Shown here: in pieces, positions 11,621-26,532 of the stretch
Numbering within the stretch: the first letter of the stretch is position 1
Layout: the number at the start of each line of letters is the position of its first letter
Sequence record: NC_047809.1
Length of the DNA stretch: 37,775 bases
Origin: Escherichia phage vB_EcoP_K
Reading direction: 5' to 3' (one strand)
The notes under the pieces: generated by a model
Seen by the model: the letters and a program-made list of their open reading frames with translations, nothing else
Told to the model about the DNA's origin: nothing
The model's database searches: none
Translations under genes and position numbers: made by a program

Positions 11621-11903
11621 ACATGCAGCTACGGAAGACGAGGTTGGCATTCTACATGGTGCTATTACCAAAATCTTTAATAAGAAAGCACAGGCAATAC
11701 TGGACACTATAGAAGAAGACCCAGATGCAGCACTGCATTTAGTCTCTGGTAAAGACATTGGAGCTATGTGTAAGTGGGTTCTTGATAATGGTATTACCGC
11801 TACACCCGCTGCACAGCAGGAGGAGTCCAAGCTATCTAAGCGCCTCAAGGCTATCCGAGAGGCATCAAGTGGCAAGATCATCCAATTCACTAAGGAGGAT
11901 TGA
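11604..11903 (+). CDS. Terminase small subunit (T7 gp18-like), 99 aa
   Basis: GGAGGAG RBS before ATG 11604; small acidic helical protein immediately upstream of and overlapping the large terminase gene. Confidence 0.6.
   Translation: MSVHNKHAATEDEVGILHGAITKIFNKKAQAILDTIEEDPDAALHLVSGKDIGAMCKWVLDNGITATPAAQQEESKLSKRLKAIREASSGKIIQFTKED
11695..11717 (+). promoter_or_regulatory. SP6-class phage RNAP promoter (inside the terminase small subunit gene)
   Basis: CAATACTGGACACTATAGAAGAA; core identical to other copies; predicted +1 G at 11712. Confidence 0.6.
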
Positions 11904-13801
11904 TGGCTAAGGCAAGAGAATCACAAGCGGAGGCTCTTGCCAGATGGGAGATGCTACAGGAGTTACAGCAGACTTTTCCGTATACGGCGGAAGGTTTGCT
12001 TCTCTTTGCAGATACAGTTATCCATAACTTGATTGCAGGCAACCCTCATCTGATTCGTATGCAGGCCGATATTTTAAAGTTTCTATTCTATGGACATAAA
12101 TATCGCCTCATCGAAGCGCCCCGTGGTATCGCTAAAACTACACTATCAGCAATCTATACTGTTTTCCGTATCATCCATGAACCCCATAAGCGTATCATGG
12201 TAGTATCCCAAAACGCCAAGCGAGCAGAGGAAATCGCAGGTTGGGTAGTTAAAATCTTCCGTGGCCTAGACTTTCTTGAGTTTATGCTACCGGACATCTA
12301 CGCAGGGGACCGTGCCTCAGTTAAGGCATTTGAGATTCATTACACCCTACGTGGCAGTGACAAGTCGCCTTCTGTGTCTTGTTACTCAATCGAAGCAGGT
12401 ATGCAGGGTGCGCGTGCAGATATCATCCTAGCAGATGACGTTGAGTCAATGCAGAATGCTCGTACAGCGGCAGGACGTGCCTTGCTTGAGGAACTGACCA
12501 AGGAGTTTGAATCTATTAACCAGTTTGGTGATATTATCTACCTTGGTACTCCTCAGAACGTAAACTCTATCTACAATAACCTACCTACTCGTGGTTACTC
12601 TGTTCGTATCTGGACTGCACGTTATCCCTCAGTGGAGCAGGAGCAATGCTATGGTGACTCCCTTGCACCTATGATTGTGCAGGATATGAAGGACAACCCA
12701 GCACTTCGCTCAGGGTATGGCTTGGATGGCAATAGTGGTGCACCTTGTGCACCTGAAATGTATGATGATGATGTGCTGATCGAGAAGGAAATCTCGCAGG
12801 GTGCGGCTAAGTTCCAGCTTCAGTTTATGCTTAACACTCGCATGATGGATGCTGACCGCTATCCACTACGCCTGAACAACCTCATCTTCACTTCATTCGG
12901 TACAGAGGAAGTCCCTGTGGTGCCTACATGGAGCAACGACTCTATTAACATCATTGGCGATGCACCGAAGTATGGCAATAAGCCTACAGACTTTATGTAT
13001 CGCCCTGTGGCCCGACCTTATGAGTGGGGTGCTGTTACCCGAAAGATTATGTATATTGACCCCGCAGGTGGCGGTAAGAACGGGGATGAAACGGGTGTGG
13101 CTATCGTCTTCCTGCACGGCACATTCATTTATGTGTATCAGTGCTTTGGTGTTCCGGGAGGATACCGCGAATCGTCCCTGAATCGCATTGTGCAGGCCGC
13201 AAAGCAGGCAGGTGTTAAAGAGGTATTCATTGAAAAGAACTTTGGTCATGGCGCGTTTGAGGCCGTTATAAAGCCATACTTTGAACGAGAGTGGCCTGTG
13301 ACTCTGGAGGAAGATTACGCCACCGGACAGAAAGAGTTGCGTATCATTGAAACACTAGAGCCACTAATGGCGGCCCACAGGCTCATCTTCAACGCAGAGA
13401 TGGTCAAGTCTGATTTTGAGTCGGTACAGCACTATCCGCTTGAACTACGCATGTCATACAGCCTTTTCAATCAAATGTCGAACATCACGATTGAGAAGAA
13501 CAGCCTACGACACGATGACCGCTTAGACGCTCTGTATGGCGCTATACGGCAATTAACTTCTCAGATAGACTATGACGAGGTTACACGGATTAATCGCCTC
13601 AGAGCGCAGGAGATGCGCGATTACATCCATGCTATGAACACACCTCACCTCCGTAGGGCAATGCTCTATGGAGATTATGGCACTGAGCGAAGAGTAACCA
13701 ACACTTCCGTGGCTATGCAGCAAAGAGTATACGGTCAGAATTACAGGAGTAAATCGGCAAGCAGAAATACACTTTCTGCAAGGATTTCAAGGACTTATTA
13801 A
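11903..13801 (+). CDS. Terminase large subunit (T7 gp19-like), 632 aa
   Basis: Start overlaps upstream stop (TGATG); ATPase region ..RLIEAPRGIAKTT.. and ..IILADDVES..; C-terminal nuclease-like region; size and synteny. Confidence 0.9.
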   Translation: MAKARESQAEALARWEMLQELQQTFPYTAEGLLLFADTVIHNLIAGNPHLIRMQADILKFLFYGHKYRLIEAPRGIAKTTLSAIYTVFRIIHEPHKRIMVVSQNAKRAEEIAGWVVKIFRGLDFLEFMLPDIYAGDRASVKAFEIHYTLRGSDKSPSVSCYSIEAGMQGARADIILADDVESMQNARTAAGRALLEELTKEFESINQFGDIIYLGTPQNVNSIYNNLPTRGYSVRIWTARYPSVEQEQCYGDSLAPMIVQDMKDNPALRSGYGLDGNSGAPCAPEMYDDDVLIEKEISQGAAKFQLQFMLNTRMMDADRYPLRLNNLIFTSFGTEEVPVVPTWSNDSINIIGDAPKYGNKPTDFMYRPVARPYEWGAVTRKIMYIDPAGGGKNGDETGVAIVFLHGTFIYVYQCFGVPGGYRESSLNRIVQAAKQAGVKEVFIEKNFGHGAFEAVIKPYFEREWPVTLEEDYATGQKELRIIETLEPLMAAHRLIFNAEMVKSDFESVQHYPLELRMSYSLFNQMSNITIEKNSLRHDDRLDALYGAIRQLTSQIDYDEVTRINRLRAQEMRDYIHAMNTPHLRRAMLYGDYGTERRVTNTSVAMQQRVYGQNYRSKSASRNTLSARISRTY

Positions 13802-13823
13802 TTACCGGACACTATAGAAGGAA
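13801..13823 (+). promoter_or_regulatory. SP6-class phage RNAP promoter
   Basis: AATTACCGGACACTATAGAAGGA; predicted +1 G at 13818; overlaps the end of the terminase gene. Confidence 0.7.
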
Positions 13824-13961
13824 GGCCCAGATAATAAGAGAAATAACAAGGATAATATAGGTTAACCTAGGTTATATAGGTATGCCTTAGTATGGGTGTA
13901 CTCCTGTACACCCTATTCCTTACTTCCTTACTATACTTACATAATAGGAGAGAGAGAGAGA

Positions 13962-14261
13962 ATGTCTAATAGTTATAGTACACAACCCCTTACAGGTAAG
14001 TCTGCTCGTAAGCAGATACAACCTGTGAGTGAAGCCCTGATACTTCCTGTAGTTTACGAGGACACTGTTGAGAAGAAAGGTGATGTTATTAATGATGCCA
14101 CCAAATCAGGTAAGCAGAAAGGGGCCATGGTGTGTCTTGATACACATGCTAACCTGGTTATTGCTATCGCAGTTGATGGCAAAGAAGATTCCAATTGGTT
14201 GACAGCTAATAAAGCGGTCACTACTATTACCCCCAGCTTAAGAGGAGAGTTACATGTCTGA
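13962..14261 (+). CDS. Hypothetical protein, paralogue 1 of a tandem pair (99 aa)
   Basis: ATG preceded by GGAGAGAGAGAGAGA; shares ..SGKQKGAMV..L.IAIA.. block with the next ORF. Confidence 0.5.
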   Translation: MSNSYSTQPLTGKSARKQIQPVSEALILPVVYEDTVEKKGDVINDATKSGKQKGAMVCLDTHANLVIAIAVDGKEDSNWLTANKAVTTITPSLRGELHV

Positions 14262-14547
14262 ATATGGAACCACAGGTACTGTTACTGGTCAGGCTTTTCG
14301 AGTAAAAACTGTACAAACCACTGCAACGGCAATCCCTTTGCCTATTGTTGCTGAAGCAGACCTTAAGAAGAAAGATCATCCTATCAACATTAAACACCTC
14401 TCTGGTAAACAGAAAGGCGCCATGGTTGCTGTAGAGAAAGCAGACCAATCCTTGTACATCGCTATTGCACGTGGGAGTGAACCCACCGACAAGTGGGATG
14501 CAACTACTATGAAGTCGGACCCTGTAACACCTGCGGCTGAATTGTAA
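14254..14547 (+). CDS. Hypothetical protein, paralogue 2 of a tandem pair (97 aa)
   Basis: RBS AGAGGAG; shares ..K.INIKHLSGKQKGAMVAVEKADQSLYIAIA.. with the preceding ORF; 8-nt overlap with it. Confidence 0.5.
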   Translation: MSEYGTTGTVTGQAFRVKTVQTTATAIPLPIVAEADLKKKDHPINIKHLSGKQKGAMVAVEKADQSLYIAIARGSEPTDKWDATTMKSDPVTPAAEL

Positions 14548-14561
14548 AGACGAGGTCAATA

Positions 14562-14906
14562 ATGCTTAACAAACACTTCAAGCGCCGTGAGTTCGCTTGC
14601 CGTTGTGGGTGCGGTACATCCACAGTAGATGCTGAGTTACTACAGGTAGTCACAGATGTACGTGAGCACTTTGGTGCTCCTGTAGTTATTACTTCTGGAC
14701 ACCGCTGTGCTAAGCACAATGCTAATGTGGGAGGTGCTAAGAACTCCATGCATCTTACTGGTAAGGCTGCTGACATTAAGGTACAAGGTATTACACCTTA
14801 CCGTGTGTGGTCCTATCTAACAGCACGCTACCCCAATAAATATGGCATTGGGTCTTATCCTAATTTCACCCACATTGATGTAAGAGAGGGATGTGCACGA
14901 TGGTAA
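14562..14906 (+). CDS. Endolysin, zinc metallopeptidase of the M15/LAS type (probable L-alanyl-D-glutamate or D-Ala-D-Ala peptidase)
   Basis: 114 aa with ..SGHRCAKHNANVGGAKNSMHLTGKAADIKV.. and ..FTHIDVRE.. (H-x6-D and distal H zinc ligands typical of LAS peptidases, as in T5 endolysin); followed by membrane protein and spanins. Confidence 0.75.
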   Translation: MLNKHFKRREFACRCGCGTSTVDAELLQVVTDVREHFGAPVVITSGHRCAKHNANVGGAKNSMHLTGKAADIKVQGITPYRVWSYLTARYPNKYGIGSYPNFTHIDVREGCARW

Positions 14907-15480: not shown

Positions 15481-15503
15481 TTTACTGGACACTATAGAAG
15501 AGA
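15481..15503 (+). promoter_or_regulatory. SP6-class phage RNAP promoter (tailspike operon)
   Basis: ATTTACTGGACACTATAGAAGAG; predicted +1 G at 15498. Confidence 0.75.
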
Positions 15504-15581
15504 TAAGATAGTGCCGTTCTTTTGAGCGGCCTATTACTAGCCAATCTTCATAGGGAGGGTTGGGAAGTAATAGGAGAGTAT

Positions 15582-15917
15582 ATGGCTAAGTTAACTAAAC
15601 CCAAGACAACTGGCTTACTACATAGAGATACTGTACTAGCTACATTATTGGATAATTTACTATCTAAAAGGCGTGTTACATTTGAAGGTGTAGTTCCAAG
15701 TGAAGATACTAAAATTGAGATAGAAGTACCTGCAACAGGAGATTTAGATTCTTCGTGGGCATCACTTGTATCATTAAGTACACCTACACTTTGTACAGCT
15801 TGGATTACTAAAGTGTCAGATACTAGATTAGAAGTACATGTATTCCATACAGCACAAGTTGAAATAGACATAGATGTAGATGTTTACATTCTAGGTAAAC
15901 ACATTGTCAGTGCGTAA
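15582..15917 (+). CDS. 111-aa ORF upstream of endosialidase; probable remnant/adaptor-binding N-terminal module of a second tailspike
   Basis: AGGAG RBS; from recollection, phage K1E carries a 111-aa ORF at this position similar to the N-terminus of the K1-5 K5-lyase tailspike; not verifiable here. Confidence 0.5.
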   Translation: MAKLTKPKTTGLLHRDTVLATLLDNLLSKRRVTFEGVVPSEDTKIEIEVPATGDLDSSWASLVSLSTPTLCTAWITKVSDTRLEVHVFHTAQVEIDIDVDVYILGKHIVSA

Positions 15918-15984: not shown

Positions 15985-18420
15985 ATGATTCAAAGACTAG
16001 GTTCTTCATTAGTTAAATTCAAGAGTAAAATAGCAGGTGCAATCTGGCGTAACTTGGATGACAAGCTCACCGAGGTTGTATCGCTTAAAGATTTTGGAGC
16101 CAAAGGTGATGGTAAGACAAACGACCAAGATGCAGTAAATGCAGCGATGGCTTCAGGTAAGAGAATTGACGGTGCTGGTGCTACTTACAAAGTATCATCT
16201 TTACCTGATATGGAGCGATTCTATAACACCCGCTTCGTATGGGAACGTTTAGCAGGTCAACCTCTTTACTATGTGAGTAAAGGTTTTATCAATGGTGAAC
16301 TCTATAAAATCACGGATAACCCTTATTACAATGCTTGGCCTCAAGACAAAGCGTTTGTATATGAGAACGTGATATATGCACCTTACATGGGTAGCGACCG
16401 TCATGGTGTTAGTCGTCTGCATGTATCATGGGTTAAGTCTGGTGACGATGGTCAAACATGGTCTACTCCAGAGTGGTTAACTGATCTGCATCCAGATTAC
16501 CCTACAGTGAACTATCATTGTATGAGTATGGGTGTATGTCGCAACCGTCTGTTTGCCATGATTGAAACACGTACTTTAGCCAAGAACGCACTAACCAATT
16601 GTGCATTGTGGGATCGCCCTATGTCTCGTAGTCTGCATCTTACTGGTGGTATCACTAAGGCTGCAAATCAGAGATATGCAACAATCCATGTACCTGATCA
16701 CGGACTCTTCGTTGGTGATTTTGTTAACTTCTCTAACTCTGCGGTAACAGGTGTATCTGGTGATATGAAGGTTGCAACAGTAATAGATAAGGACAACTTC
16801 ACGGTTCTTACACCTAACCAGCAGACTTCAGATTTGAATAACGCTGGAAAGAGTTGGCACATGGGTACTTCTTTCCATAAATCTCCTTGGCGTAAGACAG
16901 ATCTTGGTCTAATCCCTCGTGTCACAGAGGTGCATAGCTTTGCTACTATTGATAACAATGGCTTTGTTATGGGCTATCATCAAGGTGATGTAGCTCCACG
17001 AGAAGTTGGGCTTTTCTACTTCCCTGATGCTTTCAATAGCCCATCTAATTATGTTCGTCGTCAGATACCATCTGAGTATGAACCAGATGCGGCAGAGCCA
17101 TGCATCAAGTACTATGACGGTGTATTGTACCTTATCACTCGTGGTACTTGTGGCGATCGACTAGGAAGCTCTCTGCATCGTAGTAGAGATATAGGTCAAA
17201 CTTGGGAGTCACTAAGATTTCCACATAATGTTCATCATACTACCTTACCTTTTGCTAAAGTAGGAGATGACCTTATTATGTTTGGTTCAGAACGTGCAGA
17301 AAATGAATGGGAAGCAGGTGCACCAGATGATCGTTACAAGGCATCTTATCCTCGTACCTTCTATGCACGATTGAATGTAAACAAGTGGAATGCAGATGAC
17401 ATTGAATGGGTTAACATCACAGACCAAATCTATCAGGGTGACATTGTGAACTCTAGTGTAGGTGTAGGTTCGGTAGTAGTTAAAGACAGCTACATTTACT
17501 ATATCTTTGGTGGAGAAAACCATTTCAACCCAATGACTTATGGTGACAACAAAGATAAAGACCCATTTAAAGGTCATGGACACCCCACTGATATATACTG
17601 CTATAAGATGCAGATTGCAAATGACAATCGTGTATCTCGTAAGTTTACATATGGTGCAACTCCGGGTCAGGCTATACCTACCTTCATGGGTACTGATGGT
17701 ATTCGTACTATTCCTGCTCCACTTCACTTATCAGGAGAGGTAGTTGCCGCAGATATGACTGTCGAACACCTTACCCTGAAGGCAAGTACAAGTGCTAATA
17801 TTCGCTCAGAGATGCTGATGGAAGGTGAATATGGGTTCATTGGTAAGACTATACCAACGGATAACCCAACTGCCCAACGTGTCATCATCTCTGGTGGAGG
17901 GGGTACAGCAGCAGATACCGGTGCGCAAATTACCTTACATGGAGCAGGTTCTAGTACTTCTAGACGCGCAGTATATAATGCCAATGAGCACTTGTTCCAA
18001 AGCGGGGCTATCATGCCATACAATGATAACGTGTATCCTGCTGGCGGCCCTCGTAATAGATTCACTACTATCCATCTTACAAGTGACCCTATTATTACGT
18101 CTGATGCCACTCATAAGTATGGATCACAAGGTATTGATGAGGGTGTACTAAAGGCATGGGGCAAGGTTGCCTTCAAGCAGTACAAGTTGATTGGAGAGAT
18201 GTCTAGTGGTGTGCATCACACTCACTTTGGTGTATTGGCACAAGACATTGTAGCTGCTTTTGCATCCGAAGGGTTAGATGCAATCGACTTCGGCATTGTC
18301 TCCTTCGAAGAAGGTCAGTTTGGTGTTAGATATAGTGAAATCTTAATCTTGGAGGCTGCTTATACTCGTTATCGTTTAGACAAGTTAGAGGAGATGTATG
18401 CCACTAATAAAACCAGTTAA
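15985..18420 (+). CDS. Endosialidase (endo-N-acetylneuraminidase) tailspike with C-terminal intramolecular chaperone domain, 811 aa
   Basis: AAGGAGG RBS; sialidase Asp-boxes SGDDGQTWS and SRDIGQTWES; C-terminal ..GVHHTHFGVLAQDIV..FGVRYSEILILEAAYTRYRLDKLEE.. typical of the autocleaved chaperone domain of phage endosialidases; 811 aa is the size I recall for the K1E enzyme. Confidence 0.9.
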   Translation: MIQRLGSSLVKFKSKIAGAIWRNLDDKLTEVVSLKDFGAKGDGKTNDQDAVNAAMASGKRIDGAGATYKVSSLPDMERFYNTRFVWERLAGQPLYYVSKGFINGELYKITDNPYYNAWPQDKAFVYENVIYAPYMGSDRHGVSRLHVSWVKSGDDGQTWSTPEWLTDLHPDYPTVNYHCMSMGVCRNRLFAMIETRTLAKNALTNCALWDRPMSRSLHLTGGITKAANQRYATIHVPDHGLFVGDFVNFSNSAVTGVSGDMKVATVIDKDNFTVLTPNQQTSDLNNAGKSWHMGTSFHKSPWRKTDLGLIPRVTEVHSFATIDNNGFVMGYHQGDVAPREVGLFYFPDAFNSPSNYVRRQIPSEYEPDAAEPCIKYYDGVLYLITRGTCGDRLGSSLHRSRDIGQTWESLRFPHNVHHTTLPFAKVGDDLIMFGSERAENEWEAGAPDDRYKASYPRTFYARLNVNKWNADDIEWVNITDQIYQGDIVNSSVGVGSVVVKDSYIYYIFGGENHFNPMTYGDNKDKDPFKGHGHPTDIYCYKMQIANDNRVSRKFTYGATPGQAIPTFMGTDGIRTIPAPLHLSGEVVAADMTVEHLTLKASTSANIRSEMLMEGEYGFIGKTIPTDNPTAQRVIISGGGGTAADTGAQITLHGAGSSTSRRAVYNANEHLFQSGAIMPYNDNVYPAGGPRNRFTTIHLTSDPIITSDATHKYGSQGIDEGVLKAWGKVAFKQYKLIGEMSSGVHHTHFGVLAQDIVAAFASEGLDAIDFGIVSFEEGQFGVRYSEILILEAAYTRYRLDKLEEMYATNKTS

Positions 18421-18553
18421 GCAAGCTGCTGTACTCCAGAACACAGAAGAGCTTATTCAATCAGGACGTGACCCTAAGCAGGCATATGCCATTGCCAAGG
18501 ATGTTCAACGTAGAGTATTGAGTAAGACCTCTGCATCGTCTGCGAAGCAGTAA
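18398..18553 (+). CDS. Possible small ORF (51 aa) overlapping the 3' end of the endosialidase gene
   Basis: ATG with GAGGAG upstream; MPLIKPVKQAAVLQNTEELIQSGRDPKQAYAIAKDVQRRVLSKTSASSAKQ; no homology assessable. Confidence 0.25.
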   Translation: MPLIKPVKQAAVLQNTEELIQSGRDPKQAYAIAKDVQRRVLSKTSASSAKQ

Positions 18554-18613
18554 CACTTAGTCTGCACAAGGGCTGGCTTAGGTTGGCCCTTAGTGCAACC
18601 CAAAGGAGGTTTG

Positions 18614-18769
18614 ATGATTTGGATTCATACTTATGGAGTCGGCCCATTCAAACGTAAGGTACTCAGGAAGATACATGACACTGAAGAGTCTGCACTGGCT
18701 AGCCAGAAGGTTCTTGGTGGAACTGTACAGGCTTACCTGAAGCAACCCAATGGATTCGACTTAGTGTAA
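18614..18769 (+). CDS. Possible small ORF (51 aa)
   Basis: AAAGGAGG RBS 5 nt upstream of ATG; MIWIHTYGVGPFKRKVLRKIHDTEESALASQKVLGGTVQAYLKQPNGFDLV. Confidence 0.35.
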   Translation: MIWIHTYGVGPFKRKVLRKIHDTEESALASQKVLGGTVQAYLKQPNGFDLV

Positions 18770-18829
18770 TCAAATGAGGTAACATGAAAGACCTACTGTT
18801 AGCCCTCTTATGCACAGCATGTATCTATG

Positions 18830-18887
18830 GCCCACACCCTCATGCCCTGTCAAACGCTCAGGAATGGCCCTAAAACGGCCTGTGTAA
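18830..18887. repeat. 58-bp direct repeat, copy 1
   Basis: GCCCACACCCTCATGCCCTGTCAAACGCTCAGGAATGGCCCTAAAACGGCCTGTGTAA; identical copy at 19266-19323. Confidence 0.9.
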
Positions 18888-19025
18888 CAATAGATACAGA
18901 GCTAGGATAGGCTAGATTGGCTAGGTTTAGGGTGTTCCTCCTACTGCATCTTATCACTATTACCTACTCTCAGCGGTCTACCGACCGCGACCTAATTGCA
19001 TCTTATAGCTTTAGCTATGCAATCA

Positions 19026-19160
19026 CTAAGGTCTGGCACTAAGACTAACTAAGGTACACTACTAAGTTGATACTAAGCTAAGCACTAAGGCTTTAACTAA
19101 GGCAACCCACTAAGGCTAACCTAAGCCATCCATCAAGGAATAACCTAAGGTACACGTGAG
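19026..19160. repeat. Array of about 11 degenerate heptamers (A/C)CTAAG(G), genome-terminus-like
   Basis: CACTAAGG, AACTAAGG, TACTAAG.. recur at short irregular spacing; analogous to the CCTAAAG-type repeats of T7 genome ends; four more copies at 19325-19420. Confidence 0.7.
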
Positions 19161-19183
19161 CGAGTGAACGGAGCGCAAGCGGA

Positions 19184-19239
19184 GTGAGGAGCAGTGAGTG
19201 AGGAGCAGTGAGTGAGGAGCAGTGAGTGAGGAGCAGTGA
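19184..19239. repeat. Tandem repeat, 4 x 14 bp (GTGAGGAGCAGTGA) plus partial copies
   Basis: Exact tandem copies visible in GGAGTGAGGAGCAGTGAGTGAGGAGCAGTGAGTGAGGAGCAGTGAGTGAGGAGCAGTGAGTGAAGCG. Confidence 0.9.
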
Positions 19240-19265
19240 GTGAAGCGTAGCGAAACGAACAGATA

Positions 19266-19323
19266 GCCCACACCCTCATGCCCTGTCAAACGCTCAGGAA
19301 TGGCCCTAAAACGGCCTGTGTAA
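19266..19323. repeat. 58-bp direct repeat, copy 2
   Basis: Identical to 18830-18887; copies are 436 bp apart and bracket the heptamer and tandem-repeat region. Confidence 0.9.
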
Positions 19324-19583
19324 GCCCTAAGCGGTTGCACTAAGGCAATCACCTTGTCCAATACTAAGGCGCGCCCTAGCGCTTCCTAGGTGTTCTCCTT
19401 GTGCAGCCACTAAGAGCAGACCTCGGCAAGCCCTAGGCCACCCGTCGAGCTTCCTGCGGCAGCAGGTTGAAGACGGACCAGCCCAGCCCAATTCCCAAGC
19501 CAACCGCAGCGCGTTTAAATAGTCACGGGCAAGAGTGCTACATAGTGCAACGTAAAGTATTAGGCTCAATATGGGTCACGTGT

Positions 19584-19706
19584 ATGATGCCTATTGGCTA
19601 TACTGATACAGAGGCTATCTTCTGCACCGAAAGGGATGCAAAGAAGTTTATCTCTAAGCGTAGAAAAGCTGACTCTTACCAACCCAGAACTATTAAGGTG
19701 AACTAA
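19584..19706 (+). CDS. Short ORF reading into the primase start (open from 19467; start ambiguous), possible 5'-truncated gene remnant
   Basis: Frame open for 79 codons ending TAATG overlap with primase ATG; first in-frame ATG pair at 19584 lacks a clear RBS. Confidence 0.25.
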   Translation: MMPIGYTDTEAIFCTERDAKKFISKRRKADSYQPRTIKVN

Positions 19707-21694
19707 TGGCTATTATTAATAACATCCCGTGCCCTGCCTGCCAGAAGAATGGACACGATAAATCCGGCAATCATCTCATGATATTTGATGATGGTGCTGG
19801 CTATTGTAACCGTGGTCATTTCCACGATAACGGCAAGCCTTACTATCATAAGCCAGATGGTGGCATCGAGATCACCGAGTTGCCTATTACTGGCAATATC
19901 AAATATACACCTTCTCAATTCAAAGAGATGGAGAAGGAAGGGAAGATAAGCGACCCTAAGTTACGCGCCATCGCACTTGGTGGCATGCGTATGAAAGACC
20001 GATGGGAGGTCATGAATGAGCAAGAAAGGGCAGACCAAGAAGCAGAGTGGAAACTTGATGTTGAATGGTTCCTCACGCTTAAGCGTAAGAATCTTGTTTC
20101 CCGACACATTCGCGGCGACATTTGCGCATTGTATGATGTACGTGTCGGACACGATGAAGAGGGTAGAGTCTCACGGCATTACTATCCACGCTTCGAGAAA
20201 GGTGAACTAGTAGGCGCTAAGTGTCGCACATTACCTAAAGACTTTAAGTTTGGTCATTTAGGTAAACTCTTTGGTATGCAAGATCTTTTCGGGATGAATA
20301 CTTTGTCTCACGTGTTAGACAAGGGAAGACGAAAGGATCACTTGCTCATTGTCGGCGGCGAACTGGATGCACTAGCAGCACAGCAAATGCTCCTTGATTC
20401 TGCCAAGGGTACTAAGTGGGAAGGCCAGCCTTACCATGTATGGTCTGTCAATAAAGGTGAGTCTTGCCTTGAAGAGATAGTACAGAACCGTGAACACATC
20501 GCCCAATTTAAGAAGATTATATGGGGTTTTGATGGAGATGAGGTAGGGCAGAAGCAGAATCAGCAAGCGGCTCGCCTGTTTCCTGGCAAATCCTATATCC
20601 TTGAATACCCTTCTGGTTGCAAAGATGCTAACAAGGCATTGATGGCTGGCAAGGCTAAAGAGTTTGTTGATGCTTGGTTTAATGCCAAGTCATCTGATGA
20701 AGTCTTTGGTAGCCATATTAAATCTATCGCATCTCAAAGGGATAAGCTCAAGGCTGCACGTCCAGAGCAAGGGCTATCATGGCCTTGGCCTAAGCTGAAC
20801 AAGGTAACGCTAGGTATTCGTAAGAACCAGCTTATCATTGTAGGTGCAGGCTCTGGTGTAGGTAAGACTGAGTTCCTCCGCGAAGTGGTTAAACATCTTA
20901 TTGAAGAACATGGTGAATCTGTAGGCATCATTTCTACAGAAGACCCGATGGTCAAGGTGTCCCGTGCTTTTATCGGTAAGTGGATTGATAAGCGCATTGA
21001 GTTACCGCCAACCAATGACCCGAAAGAAGACGGATACCGTGAGGTGTTCGACTATACTGAGGAAGAGGCTAATGCCGCCATTGATTATGTAGCTGATACA
21101 GGGAAGCTGTTTGTAGCTGACCTAGAGGGTGACTATTCTATGGAGAAGGTAGAGCAAACTTGCCTAGAGTTTGAGGCTATGGGCATTTCTAATATCATCA
21201 TTGATAACTTAACGGGGATTAAATTAGATGAGCGTGCTTTTGGTGGGAAGGTTGGTGCACTTGATGAATGCGTCAAACGAATTGGTACTATCAAAGATCG
21301 ACATGCGGTTACGATTTTCCTTGTCTCTCACCTTACACGTCCTCCGGCAAACCGTACCCAACACGAAGAAGGTGGCGAAGTTATCCTTTCTGACTTCCGA
21401 GGCTCAGGCGCTATCGGATTCTGGGCATCTTACGCCTTGGGGATTGAGCGTAATACAAGAGCTGAAACGCTTGATGAAAGGACTACCACGTACATCTCAT
21501 GTGTCAAAGACCGCGACCAAGGTATCTACACTGGAACCAAGGTCATGCTTAAGGGTGACATTCAAACCGGACGTTTAATGGAACCACAAGCTCGTACTAA
21601 GTCATTTGATACAGGTGAAGCAAGGCAACAAGAAGTACCTGATTTACCAGACACTATAGAAGGGACTAACTTCGATGAAGAAAGTGAGTTCTGA
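19706..21694 (+). CDS. DNA primase-helicase (T7 gp4-like), 662 aa
   Basis: N-terminal zinc-binding CPACQKNGHD...CNRGHFH; helicase Walker A GAGSGVGKTEF; acidic C-terminus ending ..FDEESEF as in T7 gp4. Confidence 0.9.
   Translation: MAIINNIPCPACQKNGHDKSGNHLMIFDDGAGYCNRGHFHDNGKPYYHKPDGGIEITELPITGNIKYTPSQFKEMEKEGKISDPKLRAIALGGMRMKDRWEVMNEQERADQEAEWKLDVEWFLTLKRKNLVSRHIRGDICALYDVRVGHDEEGRVSRHYYPRFEKGELVGAKCRTLPKDFKFGHLGKLFGMQDLFGMNTLSHVLDKGRRKDHLLIVGGELDALAAQQMLLDSAKGTKWEGQPYHVWSVNKGESCLEEIVQNREHIAQFKKIIWGFDGDEVGQKQNQQAARLFPGKSYILEYPSGCKDANKALMAGKAKEFVDAWFNAKSSDEVFGSHIKSIASQRDKLKAARPEQGLSWPWPKLNKVTLGIRKNQLIIVGAGSGVGKTEFLREVVKHLIEEHGESVGIISTEDPMVKVSRAFIGKWIDKRIELPPTNDPKEDGYREVFDYTEEEANAAIDYVADTGKLFVADLEGDYSMEKVEQTCLEFEAMGISNIIIDNLTGIKLDERAFGGKVGALDECVKRIGTIKDRHAVTIFLVSHLTRPPANRTQHEEGGEVILSDFRGSGAIGFWASYALGIERNTRAETLDERTTTYISCVKDRDQGIYTGTKVMLKGDIQTGRLMEPQARTKSFDTGEARQQEVPDLPDTIEGTNFDEESEF
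21642..21664 (+). promoter_or_regulatory. SP6-class phage RNAP promoter (within 3' end of primase-helicase gene)
   Basis: ATTTACCAGACACTATAGAAGGG; two mismatches to the consensus upstream half; +1 G at 21659. Confidence 0.6.
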
Positions 21695-23033: not shown

Positions 23034-23252
23034 ATGAAAGCTATTAAAGTCAGTAAGGTTTGCTCTTGCGGTAAAGGTTATCGCAGTCGTATTGATGGTA
23101 AGTGTGGGCATTGCAGGTCTAAGAAAGAGGCTGCTTTGTTTGATAAGTACCACAATGAATTAGCATATAACTATCCTCATCTAACACCTAATTCTTTATT
23201 AGGACTTGGTTATAGGGTTAAATACTTTGGAGCAATCTATGAAATCAATTGA
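23034..23252 (+). CDS. Small zinc-ribbon-like protein, 72 aa
   Basis: CSCGKGY...CGHCRSKK (CxC..CxxC); GAGG upstream; overlaps DNAP start by 14 nt. Confidence 0.4.
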   Translation: MKAIKVSKVCSCGKGYRSRIDGKCGHCRSKKEAALFDKYHNELAYNYPHLTPNSLLGLGYRVKYFGAIYEIN

Positions 23253-25785
23253 TTGGAAGAAGGAAGCAGAAGGCCGCATCTTAGTGATGGATTCTGAGGC
23301 TAAAGGCCTGCTGGATGCTATCCGATATGGCCACCGCGAAGATGTGCACATCATTTGCTGCATGGATTTGCTTACTACAGAGGAGTTCCTCTTCTTTGAC
23401 CCATACGAGATGCGTGACCCTGAAGCAAGAGAACGCCTAAAAGAATGGGAAGGCCATCAAGATGGAACATTGGTTGACGGTGTTAACTTCCTTAAGCACT
23501 GCGAAGCCATCGTCTCACAGAACTTCCTAGGGTACGACGGCCTTCTATTTGAGAAAGCATTCCCTGATATCTGGAAAGGCTTTAACTATACCGAGAGACG
23601 CGGCAAGGGCAGACTCCGCGCTGACCTGTGTCCGGTACGCGTCATGGATACGCTGGTCATGAGTCGCCTGTTAAACCCCGATAGACGCCTCCCTCCGCAA
23701 GCATACGCCAAAGGCATGGGTAACGTAGCCCCTCACTCAATTGAGGCGCACGGCATTCGTATAGGCCGTTATAAGCCGGAGAACGAGGATTGGTCTAAAC
23801 TAACTGACCACATGGTACATCGTGTACGCGAGGACGTGGCGATAGGCCGTGACCTATTCCTCTGGCTATTTAACGGAGAATGGACGGAGCACAAACGCCG
23901 TGGCGTGAATAAACGCACTGGCCTAGGTATTGAGACAGCCTTCCACATGGAGTCCATTGTGGCGCTGGAGATGAGCCGTCAGGCCGAGCGTGGATTCCGT
24001 CTGGATATAGATAAAGCATTAGCACGATGCGAGGAATTGGACGCTAAGATTGATGAGACAGTCGCAGCGTTCCGTCCGCACATGCCTATGCGTATCAAGT
24101 CTAAACCTTTTAAACCGGAAGAAAAGAATGAAGTATGCCAACGCGCAAATGAGTATGGAGCTAGCAACAATATACCTACTGTCCTTGACCCCTCTCACTT
24201 TCTTCACGCAGAGAGACGAGGAGATCGCAAGACAGTATGGAGTGTCACTACTAAGTCTGGTGATTGGTCGGCTAGCGTCAAGAAAGACTTTCCTCACCTT
24301 AGAGGAAACCGTAATGACACGCCAAGCATCAAGTGGATTGGCGCTTACTCGCCTGTTACTTTCGAAGAGATTCCCTTGGGTAACAGGGATACAGTTAAGC
24401 AAGTGCTCTATGATTATGGATGGAAAGGTGTTGAATTTAACGATACCGAGCAAGCGCATCTCGATGAGCATGGCGTATTACCCAAGCCTTGGAGTGGGAA
24501 GATAAATGAAAAGTCCCTTACTTTATGGCAAGAGAGAGCCGCACGTGAAGGTAAAACAGTCCCTGATTGGTGCTTGGGTATCGCTGCATGGTACATACTC
24601 GTATCCCGTCGTGGTCAGATCCTCAACCGTGGTGACGTTGAAGCCTTCGACCAGAAGGGGGTGTGGCCTTCGCAAGCTGGTATACGAAAGTGTCGCGGCC
24701 TTGTACCTGTAGCATTTAACAAGGAGTTAGGAATCAATGCGCAGCAATACTACGAAAGGTACGGATGCTGGCCTACGTCAGACAAGGATGACGGAGAATG
24801 GCGTGTGCCAGCTATTGCTATTAGTATTGGAACTTCTACGTTCCGTATGCGTCATCGTAACGTGGTTAATATTCCTGCCCGTGGTTTGTATCCTTTACGT
24901 GATTTATTCATAGCCGGTAAAGGTAAGCTAATCCTTGGTTGTGATGGTGCTGGTCTTGAACTACGTGTACTGTCTCACTTCATGAATGACCCTGAATATC
25001 AAGATATTGTACTGCATGGTGACATTCACACCCATAATCAAATGAAGGCTGGTCTTCCTAAGCGTGACATGGCGAAGACATTTATATATGCCTTCCTATA
25101 TGGGTCTGGTATAGCTAACCTTGCAGCAGTATGTGGTGTTACTGAGGAAGAAATGGAGGAAGTTGTGGCAAGATTTGAGGTTGAACTACCATCTCTTGCA
25201 CGTCTTCGTGAGAATGTTATCGCACAAGGTAACAAGTTTGGCTACCTACAAGCACCTGATGGTCATTGGGGTCGCATCCGTATGTCTGGTGGTGAACTTA
25301 AAGAGCACACTATGCTTAACGTACTACTCCAGATGACTGGTTCTCTGTGTATGAAATACGCATTGGTCAGAGCGTTTGCAGTGATGCGCAAGGAAGGTGT
25401 GGCCTTAGATAGCATGGGAAACCCTTGCGGTATAGCTAACGTGCACGATGAAATCCAGATGGAAGTCCCTGAAGATGAGGTCTTGTATCTCAACTACGAC
25501 TTGCCTTTCACCTTAGAAGGGTTCGAAACAGAGAAGGCTGCTGTGAAAGCAGTGTTCGATGCAGAGGAGAAACGTGTTCATGTGGATTCTGAAGGACGTA
25601 TGTGGTCTGCTGCAAATCTCGTTAGTGTTGATGCTGATGCTGGTGTACTTCATTGCCAGCGTCGTTATCACCGTGCAGGGCATATCATTGCCGATGCAAT
25701 GACTTGGGCAGGTCAGTACCTGAAGATGCGTTGTCCGATGGCAGGTGAGTATAAGATTGGTGCAAGTTGGAAGGAAACACACTGA
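23239..25785 (+). CDS. DNA polymerase, family A (T7 gp5-like), 848 aa
   Basis: GGAG 6 nt upstream; 3'-5' exonuclease-type motif ILVMDSEAKGL; polymerase motif B ..RDMAKTFIYAFLYGSG.. and motif C ..VHDEIQMEV.. Confidence 0.9.
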   Translation: MKSIDWKKEAEGRILVMDSEAKGLLDAIRYGHREDVHIICCMDLLTTEEFLFFDPYEMRDPEARERLKEWEGHQDGTLVDGVNFLKHCEAIVSQNFLGYDGLLFEKAFPDIWKGFNYTERRGKGRLRADLCPVRVMDTLVMSRLLNPDRRLPPQAYAKGMGNVAPHSIEAHGIRIGRYKPENEDWSKLTDHMVHRVREDVAIGRDLFLWLFNGEWTEHKRRGVNKRTGLGIETAFHMESIVALEMSRQAERGFRLDIDKALARCEELDAKIDETVAAFRPHMPMRIKSKPFKPEEKNEVCQRANEYGASNNIPTVLDPSHFLHAERRGDRKTVWSVTTKSGDWSASVKKDFPHLRGNRNDTPSIKWIGAYSPVTFEEIPLGNRDTVKQVLYDYGWKGVEFNDTEQAHLDEHGVLPKPWSGKINEKSLTLWQERAAREGKTVPDWCLGIAAWYILVSRRGQILNRGDVEAFDQKGVWPSQAGIRKCRGLVPVAFNKELGINAQQYYERYGCWPTSDKDDGEWRVPAIAISIGTSTFRMRHRNVVNIPARGLYPLRDLFIAGKGKLILGCDGAGLELRVLSHFMNDPEYQDIVLHGDIHTHNQMKAGLPKRDMAKTFIYAFLYGSGIANLAAVCGVTEEEMEEVVARFEVELPSLARLRENVIAQGNKFGYLQAPDGHWGRIRMSGGELKEHTMLNVLLQMTGSLCMKYALVRAFAVMRKEGVALDSMGNPCGIANVHDEIQMEVPEDEVLYLNYDLPFTLEGFETEKAAVKAVFDAEEKRVHVDSEGRMWSAANLVSVDADAGVLHCQRRYHRAGHIIADAMTWAGQYLKMRCPMAGEYKIGASWKETH

Positions 25786-26067: not shown

Positions 26068-26090
26068 ATTTACTGGACACTATAGAAGGA
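26068..26090 (+). promoter_or_regulatory. SP6-class phage RNAP promoter
   Basis: ATTTACTGGACACTATAGAAGGA; +1 G at 26085. Confidence 0.75.
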
Positions 26091-26154
26091 AAGCCTAGGT
26101 AATCTAGGTTTATAAGGTAGTATAGGTAATTAAATAAATATAGGAGATATAAAT

Positions 26155-26532
26155 ATGTCTATGGTAACTACTCTGGTATTCGTGGCTCAATACTTTCGTG
26201 GTCTTGCTAATAAGTTCAAGTCCAAGGCTATCAAAGCTATTGAGGCTCGCATCGAAGCAGTACAGGCAGAGCAAGTTAAAGTTGAAGAACATCGTAGTTC
26301 TCAAATGATTGACTGTCATAACCGCTACTATGCATCTCGTGATGAACTAAATGCACGTCAAGTCAAAGAGGTAGAAGATATGCTGGCACGTCACCAGCAA
26401 GAGCGTGACAGCCTGAAAGCTGAATTTGAAGAGAACAAGGCATCAATTGCTCTTGTAAATCAAGCTGCATCTGACAGCCTGAAGAAAGAGATTGTTATGC
26501 TGGAAATAGAACTGGACAACTTGACTAAATAA
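26155..26532 (+). CDS. Hypothetical coiled-coil protein, 125 aa
   Basis: Strong AT-rich leader with GGAG; heptad-like charged sequence (..IEARIEAVQAEQVKVEE.., ..EIVMLEIELDNLTK). Confidence 0.5.
   Translation: MSMVTTLVFVAQYFRGLANKFKSKAIKAIEARIEAVQAEQVKVEEHRSSQMIDCHNRYYASRDELNARQVKEVEDMLARHQQERDSLKAEFEENKASIALVNQAASDSLKKEIVMLEIELDNLTK

Follow-up and report, generated by a model that had tools for sequence, protein, structure and literature searches.

Two tandem paralogs between the terminase and endolysin genes of Escherichia phage vB_EcoP_K: probable accessory virion proteins behind a conserved leader

Between the large terminase gene and the lysis genes of Escherichia phage vB_EcoP_K lie two short, adjoining open reading frames (ORFs) whose predicted products resemble each other and whose messenger RNA would begin with an elaborate leader. 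What are these two proteins, and why should a phage keep two such similar genes at this place? A preliminary description, made from the sequence alone, had read them as the two surviving copies of an old tandem duplication, had called their function unknown, and had found their position unexplained by the standard T7 gene set. We followed up these points by computational analysis of the whole stretch of DNA available (37,775 nt, hereafter the window), which belongs to a K1E-like Vectrevirus (Autographiviridae, Molineuxvirinae), that is, to an SP6-like and not a T7-like phage.

The gene pair, its neighbours and its history

The region 13780–14570 shares 97.6% DNA identity with Escherichia phage K1E and with the K1-specific phages vB_EcoP_B, C, D and R, and the two ORFs are K1E genes 41 and 42; we refer to their products as gp41 and gp42. 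The coding features of the locus are as follows.

11900–13801, + strand: large terminase subunit; conserved upstream neighbour of the paralog array
13962–14261, + strand: gp41 homolog, 99 aa; a single TG...SGKQKGA...W...TPA domain (family HMM E = 4e-30)
14240–14249, + strand: Shine-Dalgarno (SD) sequence of gp42, AAGAGGAGAG; translated through by the frameshifted end of gp41 in the vB_EcoP_K record
14254–14547, + strand: gp42 homolog, 97 aa, as compared with 95 aa in K1E (family HMM E = 7e-36)
14562–14906, + strand: Peptidase_M15_3 endolysin, homolog of K1E gp43; conserved downstream neighbour of the paralog array

The large terminase is encoded here by a single intact ORF of 633 aa; that of K1E (L001 378–3022) consists of 40A and 40B, interrupted by the homing-endonuclease gene 40.5. 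The endolysin start codon (14562–14564) is ATG in vB_EcoP_K and GTG in K1E. Further downstream, a 131-aa ORF without a Pfam match (15522–15917), which has its own promoter at 15488, lies directly upstream of the endosialidase tailspike gene (15985–18420). By position it is the counterpart of K1E gene 46, whose product (gp46) has been described as a vestigial tailspike base.

The record itself is probably an incomplete, permuted assembly without about 7 kb of the early region, with a junction at about 18420–19706. ORFs of at least 250 aa in the window include a primase-helicase (19706–21694) and a DNA polymerase (23206–25785); no candidate ORF for a phage RNA polymerase was found in the whole 37,775-nt window, where proteins of ~875 aa are structural only. 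The published genome description gives 38 kb for phage K and about 45 kb for its relatives, and calls the RNA polymerase and other early genes 'divergent' in phage K. Since ten SP6-type promoters are present but no RNA polymerase ORF, and the genome is smaller, we regard incompleteness of the record as the probable explanation.

Both ORFs are present as first described, and they share the SGKQKGAMV...IAIA block. BLASTP aligned gp41 and gp42 over 94 aa with 36% identity (E = 2e-13), a similarity far beyond chance; the two are true paralogs. Counted against five relatives, substitutions at codon positions 3, 1 and 2 number 160, 108 and 73 in gp41 and 125, 83 and 45 in gp42; both genes show a coding-type pattern (position 3 > 1 > 2). 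Neither of the two observations that had been named as speaking against the duplication, an alignment no better than chance or an ORF lacking coding signal in homologous genomes, was made. There are many full-length homologs, in 98 and 84 clusters of 90% identity for the two proteins, and the gp41 homologs have 91–94 aa in nearly all relatives listed. The two proteins match PHROG 2725 with E = 4e-41 and 1e-46, and the whole ~90-aa domain is homologous to this family (TG...K...PVV...IN...SGKxxGA...W...TPA).

The gp41-type and gp42-type copies form separate clades, each of which contains orthologs from SP6 and Kp7, indicating that the duplication is older than the split between Vectrevirus, Zindervirus and the Klebsiella SP6-like phages. 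The pair follows the terminase gene in all 20 IMG/VR loci and also in K1E, which agrees with an old duplication kept as two genes. vB_EcoP_K has the layout of the family, a tandem array between the large terminase gene and the Peptidase_M15_3 endolysin gene. With regard to position, the earlier remark is true for T7, but gp41 and gp42 belong to the standard SP6/K1E gene set (K1E genes 41 and 42), and the pair is present in every SP6-like genome examined. The orthologs in K1E (97.6% DNA identity) and in SP6 (gp42 and gp43, about 50% protein identity) are recorded as hypothetical proteins and belong to PHROG 2725.

Copy number varies within the family. Pectobacterium phage PP1 has three tandem copies and Klebsiella phage S16c has four, of 88, 88, 178 and 238 aa. 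A third copy in SP6, '42.3' (L021 3298–3543), has 81 aa and lacks the C-terminal third of the domain (family HMM E = 4e-12); it looks like a paralog in the course of loss. At the same position in a close SP6 relative (L020 3297–3497), the ORF is, by eye, no longer domain-like.

The 8-nt overlap of the two ORFs (ATGTCTGA) is present in the sequence and had been taken as a sign of the old duplication, a reading that the alignment with K1E contradicts. A run of C at 14230–14234 is CCCCC here and CCCC in K1E, and the extra C is unique to the vB_EcoP_K record. K1E gp41 has 92 aa and ends in ...TITPA-stop; the 12 nt between it and gp42 contain the ribosome-binding site for the latter. The vB_EcoP_K protein differs from its K1E and SP6 counterparts by a +1 shift in the last two codons, after which it ends in ...TITPSLRGELHV-stop and its frame crosses both the ribosome-binding site and the start codon of gp42; the conserved C-terminal Ala of gp41 is replaced and seven residues are added. 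A further difference from both phages concerns gp42, whose first stop is read through: TAA in K1E is GAA here, which adds two residues (Glu-Leu). All 15 other members listed in the 90%-identity cluster of gp41 have 92 aa, the 99-aa form occurring on one contig only, and a gap of 9–20 nt separates the two genes in 20 IMG/VR relatives, K1E, UAB_Phi78, PP1, S16c and Kp7. On this comparison, the overlap is not ancestral but a one-base accident of the vB_EcoP_K record. Translational coupling inherited from the duplication is rejected as an explanation of the overlap, in view of the gap in every relative examined and of the 92-aa length of the cluster members listed. The published vB_EcoP_K genome is an Illumina assembly, and the extra C may be either a real base or an assembly error. 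Because almost all family members end in Pro-Ala, the change at the end of gp41 is not obviously neutral.

The promoter and the mRNA leader

The stretch between the terminase gene and gp41 contains the following elements.

13808–13820, + strand: promoter core for a phage RNA polymerase of SP6/K1E type, GACACTATAGAAG (found 10 times in the window; 1.1 expected)
13817–13961, + strand: gp41 mRNA leader, 145 nt if the start is G13817; modular layout conserved in SP6-like phages
13857–13882, + strand: three TAGGT(T/A) repeats starting at 13858, 13868 and 13877 (spacing 10 and 9 nt)
13894–13913, + strand: perfect 8-bp hairpin with a 4-nt loop, GGGTGTAC-TCCT-GTACACCC; same place in all relatives
13914–13931, + strand: pyrimidine-rich tract with TTCCTTAC twice at 13916–13931, a direct repeat that can pair with the SD
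13947–13961, + strand: SD GGAG extended into a (GA)7 microsatellite, 13948–13961, which abuts the ATG

Hence the components first described, a leader of roughly 140 nt with TAGGT repeats, the 8-bp hairpin and the (GA)7 tract directly before the start codon, are all there. An SP6/K1E-type promoter precedes the gene pair in all relatives. We infer G13817 as the transcription start, placing +1 as in the SP6 promoter. The order of elements (promoter, repeats, GC-rich hairpin, pyrimidine tract, A/U-rich stretch, SD) is kept across the subfamily while the sequence drifts, and the relatives carry 3–7 (T/A)AGG(T/A)A repeats with a spacing of about 10 nt. Only two TAGG-dense clusters exist on the + strand of the window; the second (18903–18935, GCTAGGATAGGCTAGATTGGCTAGGTTTAGGG) is located downstream of the endosialidase gene, near where genome ends would join. 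AGGTA-type repeats (CTAGGTAATCTAGGTTTATAAGGTAGTATAGGTAA, 26076–26154) also follow a promoter at 26076 and precede a 125-aa ORF (26155–26532) that has no Pfam match. Thus, a leader with AGGTA repeats is not unique to the gp41 operon.

The hairpin was followed by folding each sequence separately and by RNAalifold on full leaders, as MAFFT lost the register of the hairpin variants. Stems in the relatives have at least five different sequences, and complementarity is kept in all of them: GGGUGUAC/GUACACCC, GGGAGGUA/UACCUCCC, GGGUACUC/GAGUACCC, GGGUAC/GUACCC and GGGAC/GUCCC. RNAalifold on 14 full leaders found eight pairs with changes on both sides. A perfect stem of at least 8 bp arose in 70 of 2000 dinucleotide shuffles of the leader (3.5%), the folding energy of the whole leader is close to that of shuffles (z = -0.37), and no Rfam 15 covariance model matched at E up to 1 in 13500–14700. 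The hairpin alone is therefore only mildly unusual; it gains significance solely from being conserved, with compensatory changes, in the relatives. Hairpins shortly after phage promoters are common in the vB_EcoP_K genome, so that the leader is better called elaborate than exceptional. What remains of the 'unusual structured leader' first proposed is a real and conserved hairpin, not an exceptional fold of the leader as a whole.

In the consensus fold, UUCCU of the pyrimidine tract is also paired with AGGAG of the SD, in 9–14 of the 14 leaders depending on the pair and with no compensatory changes; the alignment is consistent with this pairing. The minimum-free-energy fold additionally has the pyrimidine tract paired with the GA repeat. 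A scan for terminator patterns flags 13894–13913 (two sites, 1.0 expected), and the tail of this site, TATTCCTTAC, is a mixed pyrimidine sequence and not a run of U. The number of GA units in relatives ranges from 0 to 9 (nine in K1E, seven in vB_EcoP_K, two in the GGAGA form, none in SP6). (GA)7 is an expansion of a GGAGA ribosome-binding site, that is, a hypervariable microsatellite and not a conserved element, whose changes in length alter the distance between GGAG and the start codon. Hairpin and pyrimidine tract, lying by the ribosome-binding site, most likely serve mRNA stability or tune translation of the operon.

It is conceivable that the elements act on DNA instead, the phased TAGGTA repeats serving as a binding site for a protein or as something like a replication origin, and the inverted repeat forming a cruciform. 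Phasing of ~10 bp would put the repeats on one face of the helix, a similar repeat run follows the second promoter at 26076, and T7 origins, which consist of a phage promoter and an AT-rich region after it, offer a parallel. We nevertheless consider this improbable: one relative (L013) keeps the stem by means of a G-U pair, which is workable only in the sense-strand RNA and favours a structure at the RNA level, and the consistent pairing between pyrimidine tract and SD is a feature of mRNA. Late mRNA leaders of the T7 group carry 5' stem-loops and likewise combine a phage promoter, a stable stem-loop and a strong ribosome-binding site. The hairpin of vB_EcoP_K differs from these in lying about 78 nt into the leader and not at its 5' end, and in being flanked by AGGTA repeats and a pyrimidine tract. 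Taken as an RNA structure, the conserved leader is a testable case of post-transcriptional control in a late operon of the T7 supergroup.

The domain family and its link to the virion

To which family do gp41 and gp42 belong? We searched 1.84 billion cluster representatives exhaustively with a profile (cut-off E up to 0.001); 201 of them are relatives, most being single domains of ~90 aa. About 40 of the best 150 of these 201 relatives are proteins of 250–300 aa in which the domain is matched two or three times; one of them (P0184) consists of three fused repeats, each with E about 1e-19 to 1e-23. A further protein search, run with a mixed alignment, was dominated by long proteins and contributed no more than three additional proteins with triple domains; nothing usable came out of IMG/VR scans that started from the diverse alignment or from P0183 and P0247, two distant members.

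Other relatives have the domain at the N-terminus and a C-terminal extension that starts right after the TPA motif, and these extensions are exposed, appendage-type modules. An Ig_3 domain is fused in P0260, and this layout, in 178 aa, is shared by the proteins Kp7_47 and S16c_3. A knob domain is fused in P0247 and S16c_4. The same domain also forms the end of a collagen-like protein whose gene follows the tail-fibre genes in Aeromonas phage ZPAH14, and occurs in orf14 of phage Bp4, which adjoins tailspike genes. A metagenomic contig (L028, 1050–2680) encodes terminase, then the P0184 triple fusion, then a protein in which one domain is followed by long collagen Gly-X-Y repeats. Pseudomonas phage BUCT553 has a 558-aa fusion of the domain, named SGNH hydrolase-type esterase in BFVD, whose gene lies downstream of the terminase gene and of a bare 89-aa copy.

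With a diverse alignment, AlphaFold2 predicted gp42 at a mean pLDDT of 82, the 10-residue blocks over residues 31–80 averaging 90–92; this model supersedes an earlier run with close relatives only (pLDDT 68). It has a confident compact core and an N-terminal arm which is of low confidence yet conserved in sequence. PDB sequence and fold searches found no significant match between solved structures and the ~90-aa domain, and no deposited structure containing a family member was found. Nor does the domain show significant structural similarity to the trimeric cement or decoration folds known from the PDB, among them the lambda gpD type. A GroES/Cpn10 co-chaperonin, raised by a PDB sequence match with E = 0.93, was dismissed, as neither a Cpn10 profile nor the fold supported it.

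The sole annotated family matched, PHROG 2725, is labelled 'acetyl-CoA acetyltransferase', a name that also stands in dozens of RefSeq records and in a 'putative' note on K1E gp42, which we suspect to be its origin. Thiolases are proteins of about 390 aa with a two-domain fold (Pfam Thiolase_N and Thiolase_C), and their catalysis depends on cysteines. With 95–99 aa, gp41 and gp42 have a quarter of the required size. Neither protein has a Pfam match at E up to 1 or an NCBIfam match, and no thiolase was among the PDB sequence or fold matches; gp42 contains no cysteine, and the one cysteine of gp41 is not conserved across the family. The label is all that speaks for such an enzyme, to which we assign a negligible probability; on size, on the missing profile and fold matches and on the absence of cysteine in gp42, thiolase identity is rejected. 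When therapeutic K1 and Klebsiella phages are screened for safety, the wrong label could mislead.

A more informative annotation comes from Klebsiella phage Kp7. Its proteins Kp7_45 and Kp7_46 (88 aa each) and Kp7_47 (178 aa) are encoded in the same slot between terminase and endolysin genes, in a tandem array with the same leader layout as in vB_EcoP_K. They are homologous to gp41 and gp42 (family HMM E = 7e-26, 1e-30 and 7e-22, respectively; 50% tblastn identity to gp42). A difference is that the third copy in Kp7 carries an Ig-like domain, whereas vB_EcoP_K has two bare domains only. The Kp7 record calls these proteins 'minor capsid protein', and Kp7_47 'minor capsid protein with Ig-domain'. 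In purified Kp7 virions, SDS-PAGE and mass spectrometry detected gp32, gp45, gp46 and gp47, named there as minor capsid proteins (bioRxiv 10.1101/2024.05.19.594906, section 3.4), and the T7-like phages Kp9 and Kp11 are without the Kp7 minor capsid proteins (bioRxiv 10.1101/2024.05.19.594906). The Kp7 homologs are virion components; their capsid location is the authors' label. Incorporation has been seen for Kp7 only. A literature search turned up no virion proteomics or cryo-EM study of K1E, K1-5 or SP6 that includes these genes, and only the Kp7 preprint bears on the matter. The 'unknown function' of the preliminary description is thereby narrowed, through virion components detected by mass spectrometry.

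We consider it probable that gp41 and gp42 are small accessory proteins of the virion surface, each a bare anchor domain that sits probably on the capsid. Each would be a late-expressed protein of about 10 kDa with one copy of a ~90-residue virion-attachment domain, which stands alone here and which elsewhere, in the same slot, bears a C-terminal Ig-like, fibre-knob, collagen-like or SGNH-esterase module or is tripled. From the dedicated phage promoter, an mRNA with the conserved leader would be made; such a promoter, together with a strong ribosome-binding site, is what one would expect of an abundant late protein. The products may then assemble into three-domain units, as homotrimers or mixed trimers. 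Since collagen forms obligately trimeric helices and the single-chain fusions hold three copies, we infer a working unit of three domains. Such units might bind the exterior of the particle, probably the capsid, and act there as accessory 'minor capsid' or decoration proteins, possibly with a stabilising or adhesive role.

The main rival to a capsid location is the tail. The domain could dock on the tail or on a tailspike adaptor, the stand-alone copies filling docking sites that elsewhere hold real fibres or enzymes, in the manner of K1E gp46. Esterase, knob and collagen modules are typical of tail appendages as well; we hold a tail location to be unlikely, though it deserves to be taken seriously. 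An intracellular role, for example as a chaperone of tailspike assembly or a modifier of host functions, would make the detection in Kp7 particles adventitious. The small size of the proteins, their lack of a known fold and the location of their genes beside the lysis genes, outside the head and tail modules, would all suit such a role. However, three separate paralogs were all found in purified Kp7 virions, and a protein working inside the cell would hardly be fused time and again to display domains of extracellular type (Ig, collagen, knob, esterase), which makes this reading less probable still than a tail location. Neither gp41 nor gp42 matched the defence or anti-defence models of PADLOC, which also argues against an intracellular function, and a defence or anti-defence role was rejected on this ground.

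Accessory proteins of the virion surface, as we propose here, have parallels in other phages. T4 Hoc and T5 pb10 combine a capsid-binding domain with Ig-like display domains. The likeness is at the level of the family, where Kp7_47, S16c_3 and P0260 likewise join a small anchor to exposed Ig-like domains; no relationship of sequence or fold to Hoc or pb10 was detected, and gp41 and gp42 are without a display domain. Gp45 of Shigella phage B2 is a homotrimeric decoration protein of 99 aa at the centres of capsid hexamers (PMC11654681). It has the same size as gp41, and its gene stands beside lysis genes and is followed by one for a protein with the knob domain of S16c_4 and P0247. With an hhalign probability of 0.1% it is an analogy only and not a homolog; homology to B2 gp45 or to the N-terminus of B2 gp46 was rejected at hhalign probabilities of 0.1–0.2%.

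The gp41/gp42 family is already known, if poorly characterised, and the picture drawn here is no surprise to specialists; what may be new is the view at the level of the family, of an anchor domain that is modular, occurs in triple fusions and carries swappable display domains, together with a leader that is conserved. A broader proposal, which we find possible but put forward only tentatively, is that the domain is an undescribed, structurally new virion-anchor module present in several subfamilies of Autographiviridae, working in units of three and bearing interchangeable exposed domains, and, separately, that the leader is a new cis-regulatory RNA element. If this were true, phages of the T7 supergroup would possess a second, possibly capsid-borne, system for host adhesion or enzyme display, of which gp41 and gp42 would be the bare form. 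The domain, modular and without a solved structure, is a concrete target for cryo-EM and for the engineering of display sites on SP6-like therapeutic phages.
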